Source: Halobacteria archaeon
GTDB lineage: Archaea; Halobacteriota; Syntropharchaeia; JACQPP01
DNA: 64,000 bases
NCBI GenBank assembly: GCA_038869515.1
Contig: JAWCQZ010000003.1
Span: 126,884 to 190,883 of the forward strand
Reading direction: 5' to 3'
Part shown: piece by piece, positions 11,099 to 61,818 of the stretch
Position numbering within the stretch: position 1 is the stretch's first letter
Layout of the letters: each line of letters starts with the position of its first letter
Translations under genes and position numbers: made by a program
Notes under the pieces: model-generated
What the model saw: only the letters and a program-made list of their open reading frames with translations
What the model was told of the DNA's origin: nothing
Databases searched by the model: none

Positions 11099-11317
11099 TC
11101 ACACGGCGACCGAAACGGTGACCTCTTTGACCTTCGCCGACGGGCGGATGGGGAGGCCGTCCTCGGCCAGGGACTTCAGGTGCAACTCGATGGCCTCCTT
11201 GATGTTCCGCTTGGCATCGGCCACGGTCTTGCCTTGGGAGATGCAGCCCGGCAGGCTCGGCACGGTGGCCACATACCATCCGTCCTCTTCCTTCTCGAGG
11301 TGGACCTTGAACTTCAT
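11099..11317 (-). CDS. hicB: Antitoxin HicB
   Basis: 72 aa from ATG at 11317 (MKFKVHLEKEEDGWYVATVPSLPGCISQGKTVADAKRNIKEAIELHL…), HicB/UPF0150 signature; track start 11449 is an extension across a repeat; TATA-like ATTTAATAGG about 25 bp upstream. Confidence 0.75.
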   Translation of the reverse strand: MKFKVHLEKEEDGWYVATVPSLPGCISQGKTVADAKRNIKEAIELHLKSLAEDGLPIRPSAKVKEVTVSVAV

Positions 11318-11496
11318 CGCCCAATTGTGGGTTTTCAAGCCTATTAAATCTTCACGCCCGCGGGCTGTGCCCGAGAACTCCCCGCAGGAAGTGAACCCGC
11401 AGCTCTCGCACGCTCGCGCGCGGGCCCTCCGGGGTCGCCACTCGCGCAAGCGCGGGGGCTCCCCCGGGCCCGCGCTTGTTGCCGTCCCCCGACGCC

Positions 11497-11746: not shown

Positions 11747-12016
11747 GTGGCGCCCTTCGAGGTCCAACTGACCCGGAGCGCCGAGAAGGAGTTGTCCAAG
11801 TTGCCCCGGGAGGCCATCCTGCGGTTCGCCGCGGCCATCGACCGACTTCGGGAGGACCCGAACCACGCGCGGCCCGGCGTGGATGTGAAAAAGCTGAAAG
11901 GGACCCGCTCAGCGTGGCAGCTGCGGGTCGGGGACTACCGGGGCATCTACGAGGTCGAGGGGGACAGGGTCGTGTTCACACGGTTCGCCCACCGGTCGAA
12001 GGTTTACCGAGTGTAG
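11747..12016 (+). CDS. RelE/ParE-family type II toxin
   Basis: 89 aa; …WQLRVGDYRGIYEVEGDRVVFTRFAHRSKVY matches the RelE/ParE C-terminal fold. Confidence 0.8.
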   Translation: MAPFEVQLTRSAEKELSKLPREAILRFAAAIDRLREDPNHARPGVDVKKLKGTRSAWQLRVGDYRGIYEVEGDRVVFTRFAHRSKVYRV

Positions 12017-15999: not shown

Positions 16000-16042
16000 G
16001 AACGGCCTTCTTTTTCAATCCATGATATAGCCTGTGGCCCCG

Positions 16043-17800
16043 ATGTCTCCCGGGTCCGTCCCGGCCGCCCTCCTGCTCGCCGTCCTGGCGGCCGCTTCCG
16101 CCCAGGACGCGGCGCCCTCCCTCGGCCTCTCCACCGACCTGGGGGACGTGGCTCTGGAGGCCGGGGTGGAGAGGACCTTCGCGGTGGCGGTGACCAACCT
16201 CCGCGACCTCCCTCTTCCGGTCCGCATCAGCGTCGCCGGGGCCGCCGAAGCGCTCGCGGGCCCGCCCCTGGAGTTCACCCTCGGTCCCGAGGAGCGGCGG
16301 GAGGTGCAGCTGCGCCTCAACTCGACGAGGCCCGGAACCTACCTGGGGACCCTGGTGGCCCAGGGAGGCGGCGACCGGCGCGAAATCCCCTTCCAGGCCC
16401 AGGTCCGGGTCACCCTGACCGGGCAGCCCGTGGCCCTCCGGGTCGAGCCCGGGAGCCTGAAGGCCGGGGAGGTCCTCACGGTCCTCACCTCGCCCCGGGT
16501 CTCCGTGCCCCTCCCGGGCGCCCTCGTCCTCTGGAGCGAGGACGGGACCCTCCTCTCGGAAATGGACCTCGACTTCTCCGTGCCCCGGAACGTGACCCTG
16601 ACCATCCCCGCGGGAACGCCCCCGGGGAGGGTGAGCGTCGAAGCCGCGGTCCCGCGCCTCGGCTCGGCGGTCCAGACCGTGACCGTCCTCCCCACGCCAT
16701 TCCCGACCTACCTGCTGCTCCTCCCCGCCGGGGCCGCCGCGGGCGTCGTTCTCCTCCGGTGGCGCGAGGAGCTCGCGGCCCTCCTGGCGGGGAACCGGCG
16801 CTACCCTCCCCTGACCGCCTACGGGGAGTTGCCCCGGGGCCCCTTCGCCGTGGGGCGGGTGGCGGGCAGCCGCAAGCGGTTCGAACTGGGACCGGAGCAC
16901 CTGCGGGGCCACGTCCTGGTCGCCGGGGCGACCGGCGGGGGCAAGAGCGTCGCGGCGATGGTCCTGGCCGAGGAGGCCCTGCGGCAGAAGTGGGCGGTGG
17001 TGGTGTGCGACCCCACCCTCCAGTGGACCGGCCTCCTCCGGCCCTGCGGCGATGCGGGCCTCCTCCGGCGCTACAGACTCTTCGGCATGGGGGAGGCGGG
17101 AGGCTGGCCGGGGGCCCGGAAGGAGGAGCCGGAGTTCGACCCGGGGGACCTGGTCCCGGGGCGCCTCCTCCTCTACGACTTCGGCGACGACTACGACGGG
17201 AATCTCGCCCGGCTGCTCGACCGGTTCCGGGTCGCCGGGAGCCCCCGCGTGCCCCTCCTGGTGGTCCTGGAGGAGATTCACCGGGCCCTCCCCAAATACG
17301 GCGCCCCGAGCCAGCTCTACCCGCTCCTGGAGAGCGTGGTCCGGGAGTTCCGCCACCGGGGCATATCCCTCATCCTGACCTCCCAACTGCTCTCCGACTT
17401 CAGTTCCGAAATCGGCGACAACATCCTGACCGAGATTCAGATGCTCACCAAAGGCCCCGAGGACCTGACGCGCTTGGAGAAGAAGTATGGCGCCGCCATG
17501 GCCCGGCTCGCGACCCGCCTCGAGCCCGGCGCGGGGCTGTTGCACCACCCCCAGGTCAACGGGGGGCTGCCGGTGGCGGTGGAGTTCCGGCCGACCCTGG
17601 GGGAGCCCCACAAACTGCCGGGCCCCCTGCTCGAGCGGTGGCGCGACCTGTGGGCCAGGCACGGGAGGCTGGCCGCGAAGGTGCGCGCCCCCGAGGGGGC
17701 CCAGGCCCTGGCCCGGGCCCGGGAGCGGCTGGAGACGCTGCGGCTCGAGATGGCCCATATCTATCTCGACGAGGCCGAGGGCGAGCGCAAGAAGCCTTAA
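16043..17800 (+). CDS. Membrane-anchored HerA/FtsK-like P-loop ATPase (DUF87-like) with N-terminal extracytoplasmic domain
   Basis: 585 aa from ATG 16043; signal peptide, about 200-aa extracellular region with N-x-S/T sequons, one TM helix, then cytoplasmic domain with Walker A GATGGGKS and Walker-B-like LLVVLEEIH. Confidence 0.65.
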   Translation: MSPGSVPAALLLAVLAAASAQDAAPSLGLSTDLGDVALEAGVERTFAVAVTNLRDLPLPVRISVAGAAEALAGPPLEFTLGPEERREVQLRLNSTRPGTYLGTLVAQGGGDRREIPFQAQVRVTLTGQPVALRVEPGSLKAGEVLTVLTSPRVSVPLPGALVLWSEDGTLLSEMDLDFSVPRNVTLTIPAGTPPGRVSVEAAVPRLGSAVQTVTVLPTPFPTYLLLLPAGAAAGVVLLRWREELAALLAGNRRYPPLTAYGELPRGPFAVGRVAGSRKRFELGPEHLRGHVLVAGATGGGKSVAAMVLAEEALRQKWAVVVCDPTLQWTGLLRPCGDAGLLRRYRLFGMGEAGGWPGARKEEPEFDPGDLVPGRLLLYDFGDDYDGNLARLLDRFRVAGSPRVPLLVVLEEIHRALPKYGAPSQLYPLLESVVREFRHRGISLILTSQLLSDFSSEIGDNILTEIQMLTKGPEDLTRLEKKYGAAMARLATRLEPGAGLLHHPQVNGGLPVAVEFRPTLGEPHKLPGPLLERWRDLWARHGRLAAKVRAPEGAQALARARERLETLRLEMAHIYLDEAEGERKKP

Positions 17801-18678: not shown

Positions 18679-20151
18679 TCACTTCCCAACAGCCGCTTCG
18701 CCCCCGGAGTCCGGAACCGGCCCGTGTCTTGCCCTGTCCGACCGGAGCAGGAAGAGGGAAAGGACGACGCCGGCGGCGACGCACCCCGCCGCGATGGCGA
18801 ATGCGAGATGGTAGCCGGCCGTGAAGGCCTCGGCGCGCGAGGACCCCCCGGCGAGGAGGTCGGCGCTTCTCCAGGCGGCCGCGCTCGCAAGGACCGTGAG
18901 ACCGAAAGCGCCGCCCATCTGCCCCATCACCTGGACGAGGCCGGAGGCGAGGCCCGAGTCGCCCGGCGCGACCCCCGACATCGCCAGCATCATCAGCGGC
19001 ATGAAGGCGAGCCCGGCCCCGACGCCGAAGAGGAGCATCCCCGGAAGCAGGTCTGCCGCGAACTGGCCGCCCACGGGGACACGGGCGAAGAGGACGAGGC
19101 CGGCCGCAATCAGCGCGAGACCTGGCACCAGGGTCGCCTTCGCCCCGAACCGCGTCATCAGGCGCGCGGTGAGGCCGACGGAGAAGAGGCCGATGAGGAC
19201 GGCGACCGGCAGGAAGGCGAGCCCGGTCCCGAGGGCGTCGTAGCCGAGGACCCCCTGCAGGTAGAGGGTCAAGAGGAAGAACGAGCCGAACATGCCGGTG
19301 GAGAGGGAGACCATGACGAGATTCGCGCCGGCGAGGTCGCGGGAGCGGAAAATCCGGAGGGGCACGAGCGGGTTGGGGACCCGCGACTCCACCAGGACGA
19401 ACGCCGCCAGCAGGGCGAGGGCGCCAAGGCCGAAGCCGAGGGTGGGCGCTGAGCCCCAACCGCTCTCGCCCGCCTGTACGATGGCGTAGACCCCGAGCAT
19501 CGGCGCGGCGATGACGAGGAGGACCCCGGGGAGGTCGACGCCGCCGCGGAGCCCGGTGCCCGGGTCCCGGGGGATGAGCGCCGAGGCGAGCAGCACGGTG
19601 ACGGCGCCGATGGGCAGGTTGACGAAGAAGATCCAGTGCCAGTTGATCGACTGGGTCAGGACGCCTCCCATGAGAAGCCCGACGGAGCCGCCCGCCGAGG
19701 CGAAGAAACTGAAGACCCCCATGGCCCGCGCCTGCTCCCCGGGCTCGGGGAATGAGGTGACGAGGATGGCGAGGGTCACCGCGGAGACGAGAGCTCCCCC
19801 GGCCCCCTGCAGGGCCCGGGCCGCGATGAGGAGGCCCTGGCTGTCGGCGAGGCCGCAGAGGAGAGAGGCGACCGTGAAGACAACCAGTCCCGCGATGAAG
19901 ACGCTCTTCCGCCCCACGAGGTCGCCGAGCCGGCCCGCCAGCAAGAGGAAGCCGCCGAAGGTCAGGAGGTAGGCGTTGACGACCCAGGAGAGGGAGGCCT
20001 GGGAGAAGCCGAGGTCGCGCTGGATGGAGGGGAGCGCGACATTGACGATGGTGATGTCGAGCACCATCATCAGCATCCCGATGCAGAGCACCGCGAGGGC
20101 CAACCAACGGCGGCGGTCGCCGGTTGTTGCCGCTCCACCCGCGCTCTTCAT
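18679..20151 (-). CDS. MFS transporter, DHA2 (EmrB/QacA)-like drug:H+ antiporter
   Basis: 490 aa, about 14 TM helices, MFS motifs (GRLGDLVGRK). Confidence 0.85.
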   Translation of the reverse strand: MKSAGGAATTGDRRRWLALAVLCIGMLMMVLDITIVNVALPSIQRDLGFSQASLSWVVNAYLLTFGGFLLLAGRLGDLVGRKSVFIAGLVVFTVASLLCGLADSQGLLIAARALQGAGGALVSAVTLAILVTSFPEPGEQARAMGVFSFFASAGGSVGLLMGGVLTQSINWHWIFFVNLPIGAVTVLLASALIPRDPGTGLRGGVDLPGVLLVIAAPMLGVYAIVQAGESGWGSAPTLGFGLGALALLAAFVLVESRVPNPLVPLRIFRSRDLAGANLVMVSLSTGMFGSFFLLTLYLQGVLGYDALGTGLAFLPVAVLIGLFSVGLTARLMTRFGAKATLVPGLALIAAGLVLFARVPVGGQFAADLLPGMLLFGVGAGLAFMPLMMLAMSGVAPGDSGLASGLVQVMGQMGGAFGLTVLASAAAWRSADLLAGGSSRAEAFTAGYHLAFAIAAGCVAAGVVLSLFLLRSDRARHGPVPDSGGEAAVGK

Positions 20152-21690: not shown

Positions 21691-22893
21691 CTATGGGCGC
21701 TCCCGCCGGAGTTCCATGTAGCGCACTTGTTGCCGCTCCACGCGGAAACCCTCTCGTCCCGTCGGCGCGGGCTTCTCTCCCGCGACGCCTTCGCGTCGCG
21801 TGGCAGTATCGGAGGCCCGCGCCGGTCCTTTCGGGAACCCTCTCGTCTCGTCGGCAACGGACGGCGTCGTCCCGGCGGTCTGCAGGGGGCCCGTGACTTC
21901 GAGATGCGCAAACACCAGCCGCTTTCTCACCGACTGCGCCAGCCGCACCGCCCGCGCCATCTCCTCCAACGTGAAAACGTGGTCCGGCGCCAGCACGTGG
22001 ACCAGATAATCGGAGTGCCTCGCGGGCCACTTCGAGTAGACCCGGAAGTGGGCGCCGAACTTGAAGCCGGTGCGGGCGACGAGCCCGCGGTCGCGCAAGT
22101 CGCGGTAAACGGCAAGCCGAGTCTGGAAATCGGCCCCCCCGGCGCCTCGTTCCGCGACGCGCCGGCGCTGGAACCAACCCCGCTTCGGAGGAGTCGCGAT
22201 TCCGTTCCCGGCGGGCAACTTCAGCACCCCCCGCCCCGCGAGGTAGGCCGCCTCGAGGCGCGAGAGCCAGAGGCGCCCCTCCTCGACCCGGCCGAAGAAG
22301 GCGGCCTCGCACGCCTCCGCGGCAGCCGCGTGGGAGACCAGGACGCGGCTCCCCGCCGGGACCCCCTCAGACGGGGGAATCTCGGCGGGTTTCCCTTCGG
22401 GCAGGTGGGGCCGGCGCGCCTCGTAGAAGGTGGCGTCCCCCTCGGAGTCCACCATCCCCAGGAGGAGCCTCTTGTGGACGTTGGTGGCCTCGGTGAGGAC
22501 TCCCGCCAGCTCCCCCAGCGCCACAGGCTCGCGCTCCGACAGGGCCCAGACGTAGGCCTCCGACGGCCCCCCGCCCGGCCCCGAGCCCCGCTTGTAGAGC
22601 CGGAAGTCCCGGGGCCCCGCCGCCAGCCGGTAGCCCCGGAGGCGCAGGCTGCGGTAGACCGGATAGCGCACTTCGAACCGGGGCTGGAGGGCCGCCGCAG
22701 CCCTGATGAGAGCGGGGTAGTCGAGGGGCTTCCCGTCCCTGCGGACCTCGAGCCGCCCCCGCTCGCAGAGGTGGGCCGCCTCCTCGGGGCCGAGGCGGAC
22801 CCTGCCGCCGGCGGGCTCCCCGGCGTTGGGCGGGGCCTCCTCGGGCTCCGCGAGGACGGCCCCGTCCACAAGTTCCGCCATAGGAAAGCCCAT
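21691..22893 (-). CDS. endA: tRNA-splicing endonuclease EndA (tandem-repeat type) with low-complexity C-terminal tail
   Basis: 400 aa from ATG 22893; C-terminal catalytic unit TGFKFGAHFRVY…HSDYLVHV, N-terminal degenerate repeat (…YRLYKRG…); track start 23472 is an extension. Confidence 0.75.
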   Translation of the reverse strand: MGFPMAELVDGAVLAEPEEAPPNAGEPAGGRVRLGPEEAAHLCERGRLEVRRDGKPLDYPALIRAAAALQPRFEVRYPVYRSLRLRGYRLAAGPRDFRLYKRGSGPGGGPSEAYVWALSEREPVALGELAGVLTEATNVHKRLLLGMVDSEGDATFYEARRPHLPEGKPAEIPPSEGVPAGSRVLVSHAAAAEACEAAFFGRVEEGRLWLSRLEAAYLAGRGVLKLPAGNGIATPPKRGWFQRRRVAERGAGGADFQTRLAVYRDLRDRGLVARTGFKFGAHFRVYSKWPARHSDYLVHVLAPDHVFTLEEMARAVRLAQSVRKRLVFAHLEVTGPLQTAGTTPSVADETRGFPKGPARASDTATRREGVAGEKPAPTGREGFRVERQQVRYMELRRERP

Positions 22894-22920
22894 CTCCTCC
22901 GCACCCAAAAACCGTTCCTG

Positions 22921-23727
22921 ATGACGAACCCCGTCAAGACCCCTGGAGGGGGGAGGGGGGGCGGGCCTGTGGACGGGGAGGAGCTCCACCCCTCCCCCCC
23001 GGCGACAGCCCGCCTCTTCGCCGTCGAAATCGCCCGCGTCACTCCCCGGGCGGCGGTGGACGGGGTTCCGGTGAGCCCCACCGGTGCCCCCTGCCTGCGC
23101 ATCTTCACCGTCGGGCTCCTCACCTCCGTCGAGAAGCGTGGGGCGGAGCACCGGGGGAGCGTCGCCGATTTGACCGGCGAGGTCCGCCTCGAGGCCTCGG
23201 CGAACGAGCCCGCTCCGGCCCTGTTCCTGGGCAACGCCGAGACGCCGGCGCTGGTGGCGGCGACCGTGCGCTGGACCCCGGGGGGGCTGCGCGCAGAGGA
23301 GATCCACCGCTCCACGGAGTCGGCCCGGAGCCGCTGGGTCGTGGAGACGGCGAACCGGACCCTCGACCGCGTCGAACGGATGCGGGCCTTCCTCGCCTCC
23401 CGCGGGAGGGGCTTCCCGGAGGCGGAGGCAAGACGGCTGCGCGCGGCCGCCGAGAACTACCGTCTCACCCATTCGGCCCTGGACGAAATGGAGGAGGAGG
23501 CCGCCGCCGCCATCCGGATCGTCTCGGGCGGCCCCGACCCGGAGAAGACCCTGCTCGAACTTCTCGGGCGGCCCGGCTCCGAGGGCGGGCTGGCCCGGGA
23601 GGGGCTGCTCCGGGAGGCGGCCAAGGCGGGAACCCCCCGTGGCGCCGCGGAGCGGGCGCTCGACTCGCTGCTGGCGGAGGGGCGGTGCTTCGAGCCGAAG
23701 GAGGGGATGATCCGGAGGGTGGCATGA
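22921..23727 (+). CDS. Hypothetical protein (possible nucleic-acid-binding fold)
   Basis: 268 aa from ATG 22921; good codon bias in the C-terminal two-thirds; divergent from endA with only about 28 bp between starts, so the start is uncertain. Confidence 0.45.
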   Translation: MTNPVKTPGGGRGGGPVDGEELHPSPPATARLFAVEIARVTPRAAVDGVPVSPTGAPCLRIFTVGLLTSVEKRGAEHRGSVADLTGEVRLEASANEPAPALFLGNAETPALVAATVRWTPGGLRAEEIHRSTESARSRWVVETANRTLDRVERMRAFLASRGRGFPEAEARRLRAAAENYRLTHSALDEMEEEAAAAIRIVSGGPDPEKTLLELLGRPGSEGGLAREGLLREAAKAGTPRGAAERALDSLLAEGRCFEPKEGMIRRVA

Positions 23728-24979: not shown

Positions 24980-25795
24980 ATGTCCACCGACGGTCGCCGG
25001 AGGGTGGAGGCGTGGCCGGTCCGCCTCCCGGGCCTCGTGAAGCCGGGCGATGACTTGGCCGCGATGCTGGCGCAAGCCGCCGACCTCCGCCCCGGGGACG
25101 TCGTGGCGGTCTCCTCCACCGTCGTCGCGAAGGCGGAGGGGCGGGCTGTCGCCCTCGCCGAGGTGGAGCCGGGGGCGGAGGCGCGGCGCATCGCGAGGCG
25201 CAACCGGGACGACCCGCGGTTCGTCGAGGTGGTGCTGCGGGAGGCCTCCGAGGTCCTCATTGAGAGCCCCTTCCTCCTGGTCCGCACCCGCTTCGGCGCC
25301 GTCTGCCCCAACGCCGGCGTGGACCGCTCCAACACAGAGCCCGGGACCGCCCTCCGCCATCCCGCCGACCCCGACCGGAGCGCCCGGGGCCTGCGGTCGG
25401 CCCTGGAGAGGCGGGCCGGGAAGCCGCTCGCCGTGGTCGTGACCGACACCTGCGGCCGCCCCTTCCGCCTCGGGCAGGCCGGGGCAGCCCTCGGCCTCTC
25501 GGGCTTCGCGGCCATCACCGACTGGCGGGGCCGGAAGGACCTCCACGGCAACCTCCTCGAAGTGAAGCAGGAGGCGGTCGCCGACGAACTGGCGGCCCTC
25601 GGGAACTTCCTCATGGGGGAGTCGTCGGAGGGGACGCCCGCAGCGGTCATCCGGGGCCACCGGTTCGCGGCCGCGAACGGGGGGGCCAAGGCCCTTCACA
25701 GGCCGGTCGCCGAGGATATCGTAAGGAGGGCGTTGCTCCACTACAAAGATGGCGGAAGAGAAAGAGGTCAAAGAGCCGGGCGTCGTCCGGTATAG
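24980..25795 (+). CDS. cofE: Coenzyme F420:L-glutamate ligase (F420-0:gamma-glutamyl ligase)
   Basis: 271 aa; GDDLAAML…GDVVAVSSTVVAKAEGR…VCPNAGVDRSN…VVVTDTCGRPFRLGQAGAALG…DELAA matches the CofE family. Confidence 0.85.
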   Translation: MSTDGRRRVEAWPVRLPGLVKPGDDLAAMLAQAADLRPGDVVAVSSTVVAKAEGRAVALAEVEPGAEARRIARRNRDDPRFVEVVLREASEVLIESPFLLVRTRFGAVCPNAGVDRSNTEPGTALRHPADPDRSARGLRSALERRAGKPLAVVVTDTCGRPFRLGQAGAALGLSGFAAITDWRGRKDLHGNLLEVKQEAVADELAALGNFLMGESSEGTPAAVIRGHRFAAANGGAKALHRPVAEDIVRRALLHYKDGGRERGQRAGRRPV

Positions 25796-46736: not shown

Positions 46737-47840
46737 ATGGGCCTCGACCAGGTCGCCCTCTTCATTCTGCGCCCCCTGCTGGAGCTGCTCTCCTCGGTCG
46801 TCGCCTGGGTCGGGGGGGCGATCCCGCCCCTCTCGCCCCTCACCGACCGGGTTCTCGCCCTCCTCCAGCACCCCGACATGGTCCGCTTCCTCGTCCTCTT
46901 CGTCGTGGCCAACCTCCTCCTGGTCTACATGACGCTCACGGTGCTCGCCGTGACCTGGCTGGAGCGGAAACTCCTCGCGCGCCTCCAGGACCGCCGGGGC
47001 CCGATGCACGTCGGCAAGTTCGGCCTCCTCCAGCCCATCGCGGACATGTTCAAGTTCCTCGGCAAGGAGGACACCGTCCCCCGCAGCGCCGACCGGTTCC
47101 TCTTCACCCTGGCCGTCGTGGCCCTGCCCGCCATCGCCTTCACCGCGCTCGGGGTGGTCCCCATGGCGGAGGGATGGGTCCCGGTCCGGAGCGACGTGGC
47201 CCTGATTCTCGTCTTCGCCATCTTCTCCCTCGGACCCCTCTGGGTCTTCGTGGGGGGCTGGGCCGCCAACAACAAATACACCCTCCTCGGCGGGATGCGG
47301 GGCGCGGCGCAGATGATCGCCTACGAAATCCCCCTCATCCTGAGCACGGTCGGCATCGTCATCCTGGTCGGCTCCTTCAACGTGGTGGACATCGTGAAGG
47401 CGCAGGATTCCGTCTGGCTCGCCCTGCTGCAGCCCCTCGGCTTCTTCGTCTTCGCCGTCGGGATGATCGCCGAGGTGGAGCGGTTGCCTTTCGACATCCC
47501 CGAGGCGGAGGCGGAACTGGTGGCGGGCTGGAACACCGAGTACTCCGGCCTCAAGTTCGGCATGGCCCAGGTCGCCGAGTTCGCCCGGCTCTACATCGGC
47601 TCCGCCCTCCTCGTCCTCCTCTTCCTCGGCGGCTGGAACGGGCCCTTCCTCCACCCGGTCCTCTGGTTCCTCGTCAAGGTCTGGATCGTCATGGCGGTCG
47701 TGATGTGGGCCACCCGGGCCTCCTTCCCGCGGCTGCGGATGGACCAGTTGCTGAACGTCGGCTGGAAGCGGTTCCTGCCCCTCGCCATGGTGAACATCCT
47801 GATGGCGATGGCGGTGGTGTCGCTGGGGTGGCGACCGTGA
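46737..47840 (+). CDS. nuoH: NADH-quinone oxidoreductase subunit H
   Basis: 367 aa; …ERKLLARLQDRRGP… and conserved TM helices; A/T-rich TATA-like element upstream. Confidence 0.9.
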   Translation: MGLDQVALFILRPLLELLSSVVAWVGGAIPPLSPLTDRVLALLQHPDMVRFLVLFVVANLLLVYMTLTVLAVTWLERKLLARLQDRRGPMHVGKFGLLQPIADMFKFLGKEDTVPRSADRFLFTLAVVALPAIAFTALGVVPMAEGWVPVRSDVALILVFAIFSLGPLWVFVGGWAANNKYTLLGGMRGAAQMIAYEIPLILSTVGIVILVGSFNVVDIVKAQDSVWLALLQPLGFFVFAVGMIAEVERLPFDIPEAEAELVAGWNTEYSGLKFGMAQVAEFARLYIGSALLVLLFLGGWNGPFLHPVLWFLVKVWIVMAVVMWATRASFPRLRMDQLLNVGWKRFLPLAMVNILMAMAVVSLGWRP

Positions 47841-61733: not shown

Positions 61734-61818
61734 CGCCGGAGAGGGGACTTGAACCCCCGATTCCCTTGCGGGATAGCAGTTTTCAAGACTGCCGCAATAG
61801 CCGCTATGCGACTCCGGC
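61734..61818 (-). tRNA. tRNA-Ser (anticodon UGA)
   Basis: Reverse complement folds as GCCGGAG acceptor stem, anticodon loop CUUGAAA (anticodon TGA), long variable arm, T-arm GGGGGTTCAAGTCCCCT, 3' CTCCGGC plus discriminator G; no encoded CCA. Confidence 0.8.

Follow-up and report, generated by a model that had tools for sequence, protein, structure and literature searches.

A small predicted membrane-anchored HerA-like ATPase on an archaeal contig corresponds to the C-terminal core of giant SPEARE-like surface proteins

SPEARE is the name that Hamm et al. (2019) gave to the giant versions of a surface protein found in nanohaloarchaea, the bulk of which is extracytoplasmic and the transmembrane (TM) anchor of which is C-terminal (PMC6642349). 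The most conserved part was found to be cytoplasmic and was read there as restriction-enzyme-like; homologues were reported from Woesearchaeota, Aenigmarchaeota, Micrarchaeota and Altiarchaeales, some versions were noted to be short (655 and 717 aa), and proteomics demonstrated that the Ca. Nanohaloarchaeum antarcticus SPEARE is produced (PMC6642349). Reva et al. (2023) laid out the protein as a Sec signal, about 75 immunoglobulin (Ig)-like domains, a TM helix, a cytosolic 'VirB4/TraG-like' ATPase and a coiled-coil tip, with a further ATPase gene directly downstream of the giant gene, and proposed that it works as a 'straw' for effector injection resembling a type IV secretion system (T4SS); the protease and endonuclease assignments of SPEAREs are disputed there (PMC10266531). 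The function of the ATPase is purely hypothesised in both papers (PMC6642349, PMC10266531). Here we describe a gene for a much smaller protein of the same predicted layout, located in a 64,000-nt stretch of DNA (hereafter the window) that spans positions 126,884 to 190,883 of contig JAWCQZ010000003.1 (assembly GCA_038869515.1). The overall best explanation for this surface ATPase, to which we assign a probability of roughly 0.6, is that it is a SPEARE-like core acting as an envelope motor.

The gene is an intact open reading frame (ORF) at 16034..17800 on the plus strand, stop included, and residue numbers throughout refer to the 585-aa product that begins at ATG 16043, the start used by both NCBI and the initial annotation of this locus. 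Hydropathy and an AlphaFold2 (AF2) monomer model built from a 60-sequence alignment (mean predicted local distance difference test, pLDDT, 90.1) both predict a type I membrane protein. There are two hydrophobic stretches, residues 4-27, ending at a signal-peptidase-I-type ASA/QD motif, and residues 222-243, with RWREELAALLAGNRRY after them, in agreement with the positive-inside rule. From the N-terminus, with all features on the plus strand, we predict: (i) a Sec-type signal peptide at residues 1-22 (16043..16108), disordered in the AF2 model (pLDDT below 50) as expected of such a sequence, with cleavage inferred from hydropathy and the AXA motif; (ii) a first extracellular beta-sandwich domain at residues 27-122 (16121..16408); (iii) a second such domain at residues 130-216 (16430..16690), delimited by AF2, hydropathy and the alignment of close relatives; (iv) a single small-residue-rich (AGAAAG) TM helix, modelled at about residues 223-250 (16709..16792), and then the positive cytoplasmic flank; (v) a cytoplasmic alpha/beta domain at about residues 268-520 (16844..17602), which is a HerA/VirB4-class P-loop ATPase; and (vi) a C-terminal helical hairpin or coiled coil at residues 527-585 (17621..17797), conserved family-wide and modelled up to residue 579 as helices 527-546, 550-564 and 568-579.

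Both sandwich domains are Ig/MG-like. The only N-x-S/T sequons of the protein, N96 (NST) in the first domain and N186 (PRNVT) in the second, lie between the two hydrophobic segments and thus in the ectodomain, and N186 is kept as PRN[VLI]T in all four members of the immediate clade. The ATPase domain contains a Walker A motif, AGATGGGKS (residues 294-302), a Walker B motif, VVLEEIH (residues 406-412; 17258-17278), and the HerA-type E-x-R-K/H-x-G...SQ signature in the form REFRHRG...TSQ (residues 434-448), which aligns to EGRKYG...SQ of solved HerA proteins. The initial annotation, made from the letters and a list of reading frames, had proposed a signal peptide, a beta-rich ectodomain of about 200 aa with glycosylation sequons, one TM helix and a cytoplasmic ATPase with GATGGGKS and VVLEEIH as its Walker motifs. 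Hydropathy, the AF2 model and structural comparison all agree with that arrangement, and the TM helix together with the placement of the ATPase inside the cell is supported by the hydropathy profile, the positive flank and the model.

The wider family to which this protein belongs was not apparent from a word-indexed homologue search, which returned only 5-7 proteins whether the window protein or a 7-sequence profile was used; it surfaced only through an exhaustive HMMER search over 1.84 billion representative proteins and a search seeded with the ATPase domain of a DPANN archaeon. The exhaustive search yielded 558 50%-identity clusters at E<1e-3 (278 at E<1e-30), and many of the hits are giants of 2,000-7,878 aa that match at their extreme C-terminus. 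We also analysed the ORFs of 94 related loci, namely the best 80 of at least 559 confirmed metagenome loci and 14 fetched before (a scan of genome contigs gave at least 7 loci). These contain giant ORFs, often of more than 3,900 aa where they were ended by the 10-kb flank, and it is the last 560-600 residues of the giant ORFs that align to residues ~25-577 of the window protein. When the ectodomain was used alone as the query, each giant protein gave one match, always membrane-proximal, in which domain 1 stopped about 500 residues short of the C-terminus. Because of this, the conserved module as we delimit it from the alignments includes both beta-sandwiches and not merely the TM helix and the ATPase. 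By the same alignments, the window protein is the bare C-terminal core, about 560 residues long, of what we call the SPEARE-like family, and we consider it very probable that it belongs to that family with the topology described above.

The connection to the published proteins runs through P0067 (individual relatives are given P numbers and related loci L numbers), a protein of 7,878 aa whose 90% cluster includes a sequence labelled 'Candidatus Nanohaloarchaea archaeon'. Residues 251-581 of the window protein match the C-terminus of P0067 with 34% identity in BLASTP (E 2e-55; phmmer E 4e-45), and it is by way of this protein that homology to SPEAREs, of which NAR1_1133 and SVXNc_0300 are named examples, was established. 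Taxon labels among the relatives include the DPANN groups Altiarchaeota, Nanoarchaeota, Woesearchaeota, Pacearchaeota, Micrarchaeota, Aenigmarchaeota and Nanohaloarchaea, and the non-DPANN Hadarchaeales; in DPANN archaea and Hadarchaeales an adhesin-like ectodomain of 2,000 to more than 9,000 residues is usually attached to the core. The few bacterial labels occur on short, incomplete contigs and are possibly due to misbinning. Some members that appear to be soluble or ATPase-only are gene-calling artefacts; this holds for at least P0169 (366 aa, 'ATPase-only'), which in the DNA forms the C-terminus of an uninterrupted ORF of 2,019 aa (L012:5042-11101). A scan of a collection of viral contigs recovered no relative, and a viral or packaging-ATPase origin was rejected on that ground.

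The immediate clade has four members (P0001-P0004; 69-71% identity) among 15 billion proteins. The nearest relative outside it is P0008, a protein of 627 aa with a signal peptide, a sequon-rich ectodomain, a TM helix and an ATPase, which is 32% identical to the window protein over its full length (E 6e-90) and shares with it an E-E Walker B and a SQLLSDFS motif. P0008 and P0055, both small forms, group with the clade in a neighbour-joining tree, on long branches. The initial annotation had not recognised the architecture as a described system. That view is not supported, because the layout has been published for SPEARE proteins (PMC6642349, PMC10266531) and the window protein is homologous to that module; the architecture goes unmentioned in papers by Makarova et al. 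on the 'dark matter' of archaea and on membrane proteins. The functional guess made at the same time, ATP-driven translocation coupled to a surface domain, essentially matches what has been hypothesised in the SPEARE literature.

With regard to the ATPase itself, the fold is that of the RecA-like FtsK-HerA superfamily. Pfam DUF87, the HerA central domain, matched the window protein just over threshold (26.8 vs 23.2 bits), and among 60 family members DUF87 was matched in 58 and HerA_C in 56. A family profile searched against PDB sequences placed eight HerA entries on top (E 3e-8 to 4e-6), followed by IcmO/DotL, TrwB and FtsK; phmmer against PDB likewise listed HerA entries first, then IcmO/TrwB and then FtsK, and HerA structures led the Foldseek results (4d2i, E 3e-13). 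A structural comparison, the figures of which are unlabelled, gave 25.7 for S. solfataricus HerA (4d2i), 22.6 for the VirB4 C-terminal domain (4ag5), 22.1 for both anti-phage HerA (9c1m) and the DndH C-domain (7es4), 21.9 for D. radiodurans HerA (7f6d), 17.5 for TcpA (6o1x), 17.4 for STIV2 B204 (4kfr), 16.7 for FtsK (2ius) and 16.4 for TrwB (1e9r). Judged by these sequence and model comparisons, the ATPase is a member of the HerA/VirB4 branch of the superfamily and is nearest HerA. The published labels for SPEAREs can be refined to the same extent: the ATPase we place closest to HerA is not a restriction enzyme and is VirB4-like only secondarily.

It does not follow that the protein is a bona fide HerA. 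Curated NCBIfam models for HerA, TraD, TrbE, CedD and anti-phage HerA scored 9-21 bits against cutoffs of 366-1020, the two HerA equivalogs among them reaching 16.9 bits vs 800 (NF040937) and 11.6 vs 970 (NF040819), and there is no NurA, T4SS or defence-effector gene near the surface-ATPase gene. We regard the protein as distinct from HerA proper because there is no space for a HAS barrel, the curated models are far below cutoff, NurA is not nearby and the PADLOC match to mad8 (see below) covers the core only. The homologues do not form a well-characterised VirB4/TraC family either, in line with the initial annotation. All 19 family-invariant residues are retained in the window ATPase. The aspartate of Walker B is replaced by glutamate (hhhEE[IV]H), as it is in 12 of 365 otherwise intact members from several unrelated sub-lineages (among them P0008, P0164, P0044, P0074 and P0103). 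Within the clade, identity is 80% in the ATPase, 77% in the TM helix, 66% in the first sandwich and 50% in the second, which is the fastest-evolving part. Purifying selection combined with a faster-evolving exterior makes a pseudo-enzyme unlikely, and by its sequence the ATPase looks functional.

A plausible scenario accommodating these features is as follows. The cytoplasmic domain would assemble as a hexamer into a ring at the membrane's inner face, by analogy with HerA, VirB4, FtsK and TrwB, while the six small-residue-rich TM helices would bundle together and the twelve beta-sandwich domains would form an external collar. The ring would use ATP hydrolysis to perform mechanical work across the envelope, most probably by moving a polymer, be it DNA, a protein or a peptide, through the ring or beside it. 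A hexamer beneath the membrane seems the most likely state because the close structural relatives are, without exception, hexameric rings through which DNA or a polypeptide is threaded. The sandwiches are strictly conserved together with the ATPase, an indication that the external and internal portions work as a single machine. Among the activities that can be envisaged, the likeliest is ATP-driven movement of a polymer at the envelope or across it, but our confidence in it, which is by analogy, is limited and we would sooner bet against it than for it. DNA is the leading candidate for the substrate, although we hold this more specific proposal to be unlikely. The membrane-associated HerA/VirB4-like ATPases CedB of Sulfolobales and TdtA of Thermus act in DNA transfer.

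Several points weigh against a SPEARE-like envelope motor. The chief difficulty is twofold. A single TM helix per subunit would allow a bundle of no more than six helices, and by themselves these cannot form a pore wide enough for double-stranded DNA. No gene for a channel-forming partner adjoins the window gene, the neighbours of which are housekeeping genes, and a hidden Markov model of the coiled-coil partner described below found nothing in the six-frame translation of the window nor in L001, the locus of a close relative. The Walker B substitution noted above also has to be counted here. Cleavage of the signal peptide is predicted from hydropathy and the AXA motif only, the function of the SPEARE ATPase is only hypothesised in the literature, and the hexamer is inferred by analogy.

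The main rival is that the protein is a surface receptor or adhesin anchor. In such a scheme the ectodomain would bind a ligand or the S-layer and the ATPase would signal, oligomerise, or remodel or anchor a cytoplasmic scaffold, in the manner of a 'mechanical clutch', with no polymer transport. The scaffold would be the coiled-coil protein that accompanies the family in other lineages such as the DPANN relatives. Clustering of neighbouring genes across the 94 loci revealed a gene for this protein in 73 (62 versions at 90% identity), at position +1 downstream in 56 and at +2 in 14, which makes it the most conserved neighbour. The partner is a cytoplasmic protein of 400-560 aa with no TM segment and with a conserved N-terminal region of about 200 residues (...nERis.lsEeIGELRsm.lErEk...); examples are L004:4219-5910, L007:9330-10934 and L074:11103-12698. 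It matches no Pfam family, giving just weak coiled-coil noise, and no mention of it was found in the SPEARE papers (PMC6642349, PMC10266531). Consistent with an anchor, the module carries huge adhesin-like ectodomains in most relatives, and one TM helix is typical of receptors and not of channels. However, the window protein has kept every catalytic residue while having neither a large ectodomain nor the coiled-coil partner, and all of its close structural relatives are ring translocases. We therefore consider a receptor or anchor role to be possible but improbable.

Other genes recur at the related loci. In several, a giant member is directly followed by a small paralogue of 550-630 aa (for example L018:2-6306, L019:3-4870, L074:3-11077 (LFCJ01) and L092:2-13264), which is presumably the 'second ATPase' of Reva et al., and at L011:1421-11254 a 2,472-aa member is followed by an ATPase-only paralogue of 417 aa. 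The frames of the giant and the small paralogue overlap by 4 nt in L018, L019 and L074, suggestive of translational coupling and possibly of a hetero-oligomeric ring. Further recurrent neighbours are C-terminally anchored secreted proteins (NPCBM_assoc/CARDB-like), a small upstream winged helix-turn-helix protein and MinD/ParA-like ATPases. None of the recurrent partner genes is present in the window or beside the close relative, and tblastn of the window detected no second family member and no KaiC-like ATPase, the latter having been seen near some relatives.

Returning to the envelope motor, a second competing explanation is that the protein is a membrane-sited anti-virus ATPase of HerA type, akin to Sir2-HerA, DUF4297-HerA and MADS mad8, that senses infection at the envelope. 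The top PDB sequence matches are indeed to anti-phage HerA (8ziq and 8xau; 8ziq at E 2e-6 for the C-terminal half of the ATPase), and the best PADLOC match is to mad8 (53 bits, E 9e-15, residues 291-519). These matches are nevertheless at the domain level only, as illustrated by a score of 21 bits against the cutoff of 850 for HerA_antiphage_2 in NCBIfam. Furthermore, no Sir2, DUF4297 nuclease or methylase adjoins the window gene or is found in the related loci, the gene sits in a conserved housekeeping context and not in a defence island, and the family is absent from viral contigs. We judge a role in defence to be quite improbable.

Slightly less probable again is a conjugative or T4SS-like component of the VirB4/TraC or coupling-protein type, the proposal that was put forward for the giant nanohaloarchaeal proteins (PMC10266531). 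Weak Pfam matches to TrwB_AAD_bind, AAA_10 and T4SS-DNA_transf in many family members are in keeping with it. Yet the VirB4 N-terminal domain is absent, the Pfam scan gave no CagE_TrbE_VirB match, the TrbE model scored 8.9 bits vs 1020 and TraD models 15-19 vs 366-647, and HerA ranked above VirB4 and the coupling proteins in every search; there are also no T4SS, relaxase, integrase, plasmid or other mobile-element genes in the 64-kb window. Finally, that the gene is a decaying remnant of a once-giant gene, its pseudo-ATPase kept merely as a membrane anchor, might be entertained in view of the Walker B glutamate and the lack of any large ectodomain or partner gene, but is the least credible of the readings considered given an intact ORF with syntenic orthologues at 70% identity, an ATPase that is the most conserved part of the protein and retains every family-invariant residue, and the independent recurrence of the E-for-D change in intact relatives including P0008 and P0164.

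Some detail can be added concerning the gene and its product. Read from GTG 16034 the protein has 588 aa. The three ~70%-identical homologues have the N-terminus M-A-P-(D/E)-(S/P)-P, and translation from the GTG gives MAPMSPGS; because the homologues also begin M-A-P, we favour GTG 16034, 9 nt upstream of the annotated ATG, as probably the true start. In this case the gap to the divergent NTP_transferase gene (start 15999) is only 34 bp and AT-rich (CTTCTTTTTCAATCCATGATATAG). The GC content at third codon positions (GC3) of the surface-ATPase gene is 0.94, equal to that of the flanking genuine genes in a window of about 70% GC. An identical 585-aa protein is present in NCBI as 'MAG: DUF87 domain-containing protein [Halobacteria archaeon]' and is encoded on contigs reaching 258 kb in length, as in GCA_038869275.1.

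The neighbours of the gene encode two NTP_transferases, a UDP-glucose dehydrogenase, an SDR protein, an MFS transporter, a MarR protein and the tRNA-splicing endonuclease EndA. The locus of P0002, L001, which is the only one from a close relative with enough flanking sequence, is syntenic, with a divergent NTP_transferase gene, the surface ATPase, an SDR gene 23 nt downstream, a small ORF, a MarR gene and the tRNA-splicing endonuclease gene. The initial annotation had placed the gene among sugar-nucleotide and cell-surface genes. The former are present, in the shape of the NTP_transferases and the UDP-glucose dehydrogenase; further cell-surface genes were not seen, and the sugar-nucleotide setting is kept only within the close clade and is not a trait of the wider family. 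The MFS transporter gene (18679-20151, minus strand) lies between the SDR gene and a small conserved ORF of 92 aa, and since it is absent at the matching position of L001 it is a local insertion or deletion. The tRNA-splicing endonuclease ORF (21691-23472, minus strand; 593 aa) encodes the two-unit (duplicated) form; its Pfam matches begin only at residue ~221 and the L001 orthologue is 336 aa long, which makes an internal true start probable.

As to the host, the window also encodes Mtd (4493-5359), CofE (24980-25795) and the Fpo/Nuo H subunit (46737-47840), together with IMPDH, ATCase, KARI and an ammonium transporter. The 21 window proteins that we sampled are basic, with a ratio of acidic to basic residues (DE/KR) of 0.89 and an isoelectric point mostly of 8-10. 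From this gene content we take the host not to be a DPANN symbiont. Nor, to judge by the basic proteome and despite the NCBI label 'Halobacteria archaeon', is it a salt-in haloarchaeon; another lineage, one using tetrahydromethanopterin (H4MPT) and F420, is more likely. Acquisition of the gene by a haloarchaeon from a nanohaloarchaeal symbiont was considered and set aside in view of the basic proteome and of a GC3 equal to that of the neighbours.

Other features of the window are recorded here for completeness. A HicB-type antitoxin-like ORF (11099-11449, minus strand; MKFKVHLEKEEDGWYVATVPSLPGC...) and a RelE/ParE-type toxin-like ORF (11747-12016, plus strand), both putative assignments, are beside a glyoxalase-like ORF. 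The ORF at 1484-2692 (minus strand) encodes a membrane protein in which seven TM segments (HisKA_7TM-like) are fused to DUF835; a precomputed DUF835 match also exists on a family member, P0120 or P0235, and is probably a coincidence. A tRNA-Ser (TGA) at 61734-61818 (minus strand) is the only Rfam/ARAGORN match in the 64 kb.

The architecture of the window protein is thus already known, and the protein is an unusually small further member of its family. The present results are that the core includes the membrane-proximal sandwich pair, that a stand-alone form of 585 aa exists outside DPANN archaea, and that the ATPase appears closest to HerA, not to VirB4/TraG or a restriction enzyme. In this non-DPANN archaeon the core occurs without symbiosis-specific ectodomains and without adjacent partner genes. 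We offer, as a tentative and rather doubtful extension, the idea that the core unit is a self-contained and hitherto unrecognised archaeal trans-envelope motor, with collar and ring in one polypeptide, and that the giant SPEAREs of DPANN archaea are elaborations of it by adhesin arrays. If this were true, the window protein would be a minimal tractable model for SPEARE function, for example in the passage of DNA or effectors between archaeal cells. In several DPANN symbionts nothing in the genome is as conspicuous as the SPEARE giants, for which roles in host attachment, invasion or effector and DNA exchange have been proposed. Their size, 3,000-9,400 residues, makes them very difficult to work on, whereas a small protein can be expressed, assayed and imaged in nanodiscs. 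The conserved coiled-coil neighbour of the related loci provides an extra handle on mechanism. Should the module prove to be a translocase, it would constitute an archaeal cell-to-cell transfer device distinct from Ced/Ted and T4SS.

How, then, does the protein compare with systems that have been described? It differs from the Ced/Ted systems in failing the CedD equivalog (NF053655), which reached 20.1 bits against a cutoff of 600 and did so in the Walker A region only. In VirB4, TrwB, TcpA, IcmO and FtsK/EccC the TM segments are N-terminal hairpins without a folded ectodomain; the partner genes of VirB4, coupling and FtsK/EccC proteins are absent at the window, and the scores are far under the family cutoffs. 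The anti-phage systems are akin to it through the sequence and PADLOC matches already described, but Sir2-HerA, DUF4297-HerA and mad8 are cytoplasmic, the HerA types among them have a HAS barrel and an effector is always adjacent, and the window protein has none of these traits. To HerA (4d2i; HerA-NurA) the resemblance is closer, as it extends to the DUF87 and HerA_C signatures, the E-x-R-K-x-G...SQ motif and a DE/EE-x-H Walker B. Nevertheless, the N-terminal HAS barrel of HerA is lacking, only about 45 residues separating the end of the TM helix (~250) from Walker A; the protein is membrane-anchored with an ectodomain; and the gene is not in a NurA/Mre11/Rad50 neighbourhood.

It is with the SPEARE proteins that the correspondence is most extensive, and the differences are these. 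The ectodomain of the window protein comprises about 195 residues in two beta-sandwiches, with no laminin-G, protease-like or toxin-like domains and no long Ig arrays, and it lacks the protease and endonuclease domains that gave SPEAREs their name; the host is an archaeon of 70% GC whose proteome is basic and which has genes for Mtd, CofE and Fpo, and not a DPANN symbiont; the locus has neither the downstream small paralogue nor the coiled-coil partner; and the Walker B motif has EE in place of DE. What the window protein and the SPEAREs have in common is the order of their parts, which in both runs from a Sec signal and an Ig-like ectodomain through one TM helix close to the C-terminus to a conserved ATPase in the cytoplasm and, last, a coiled-coil tip.

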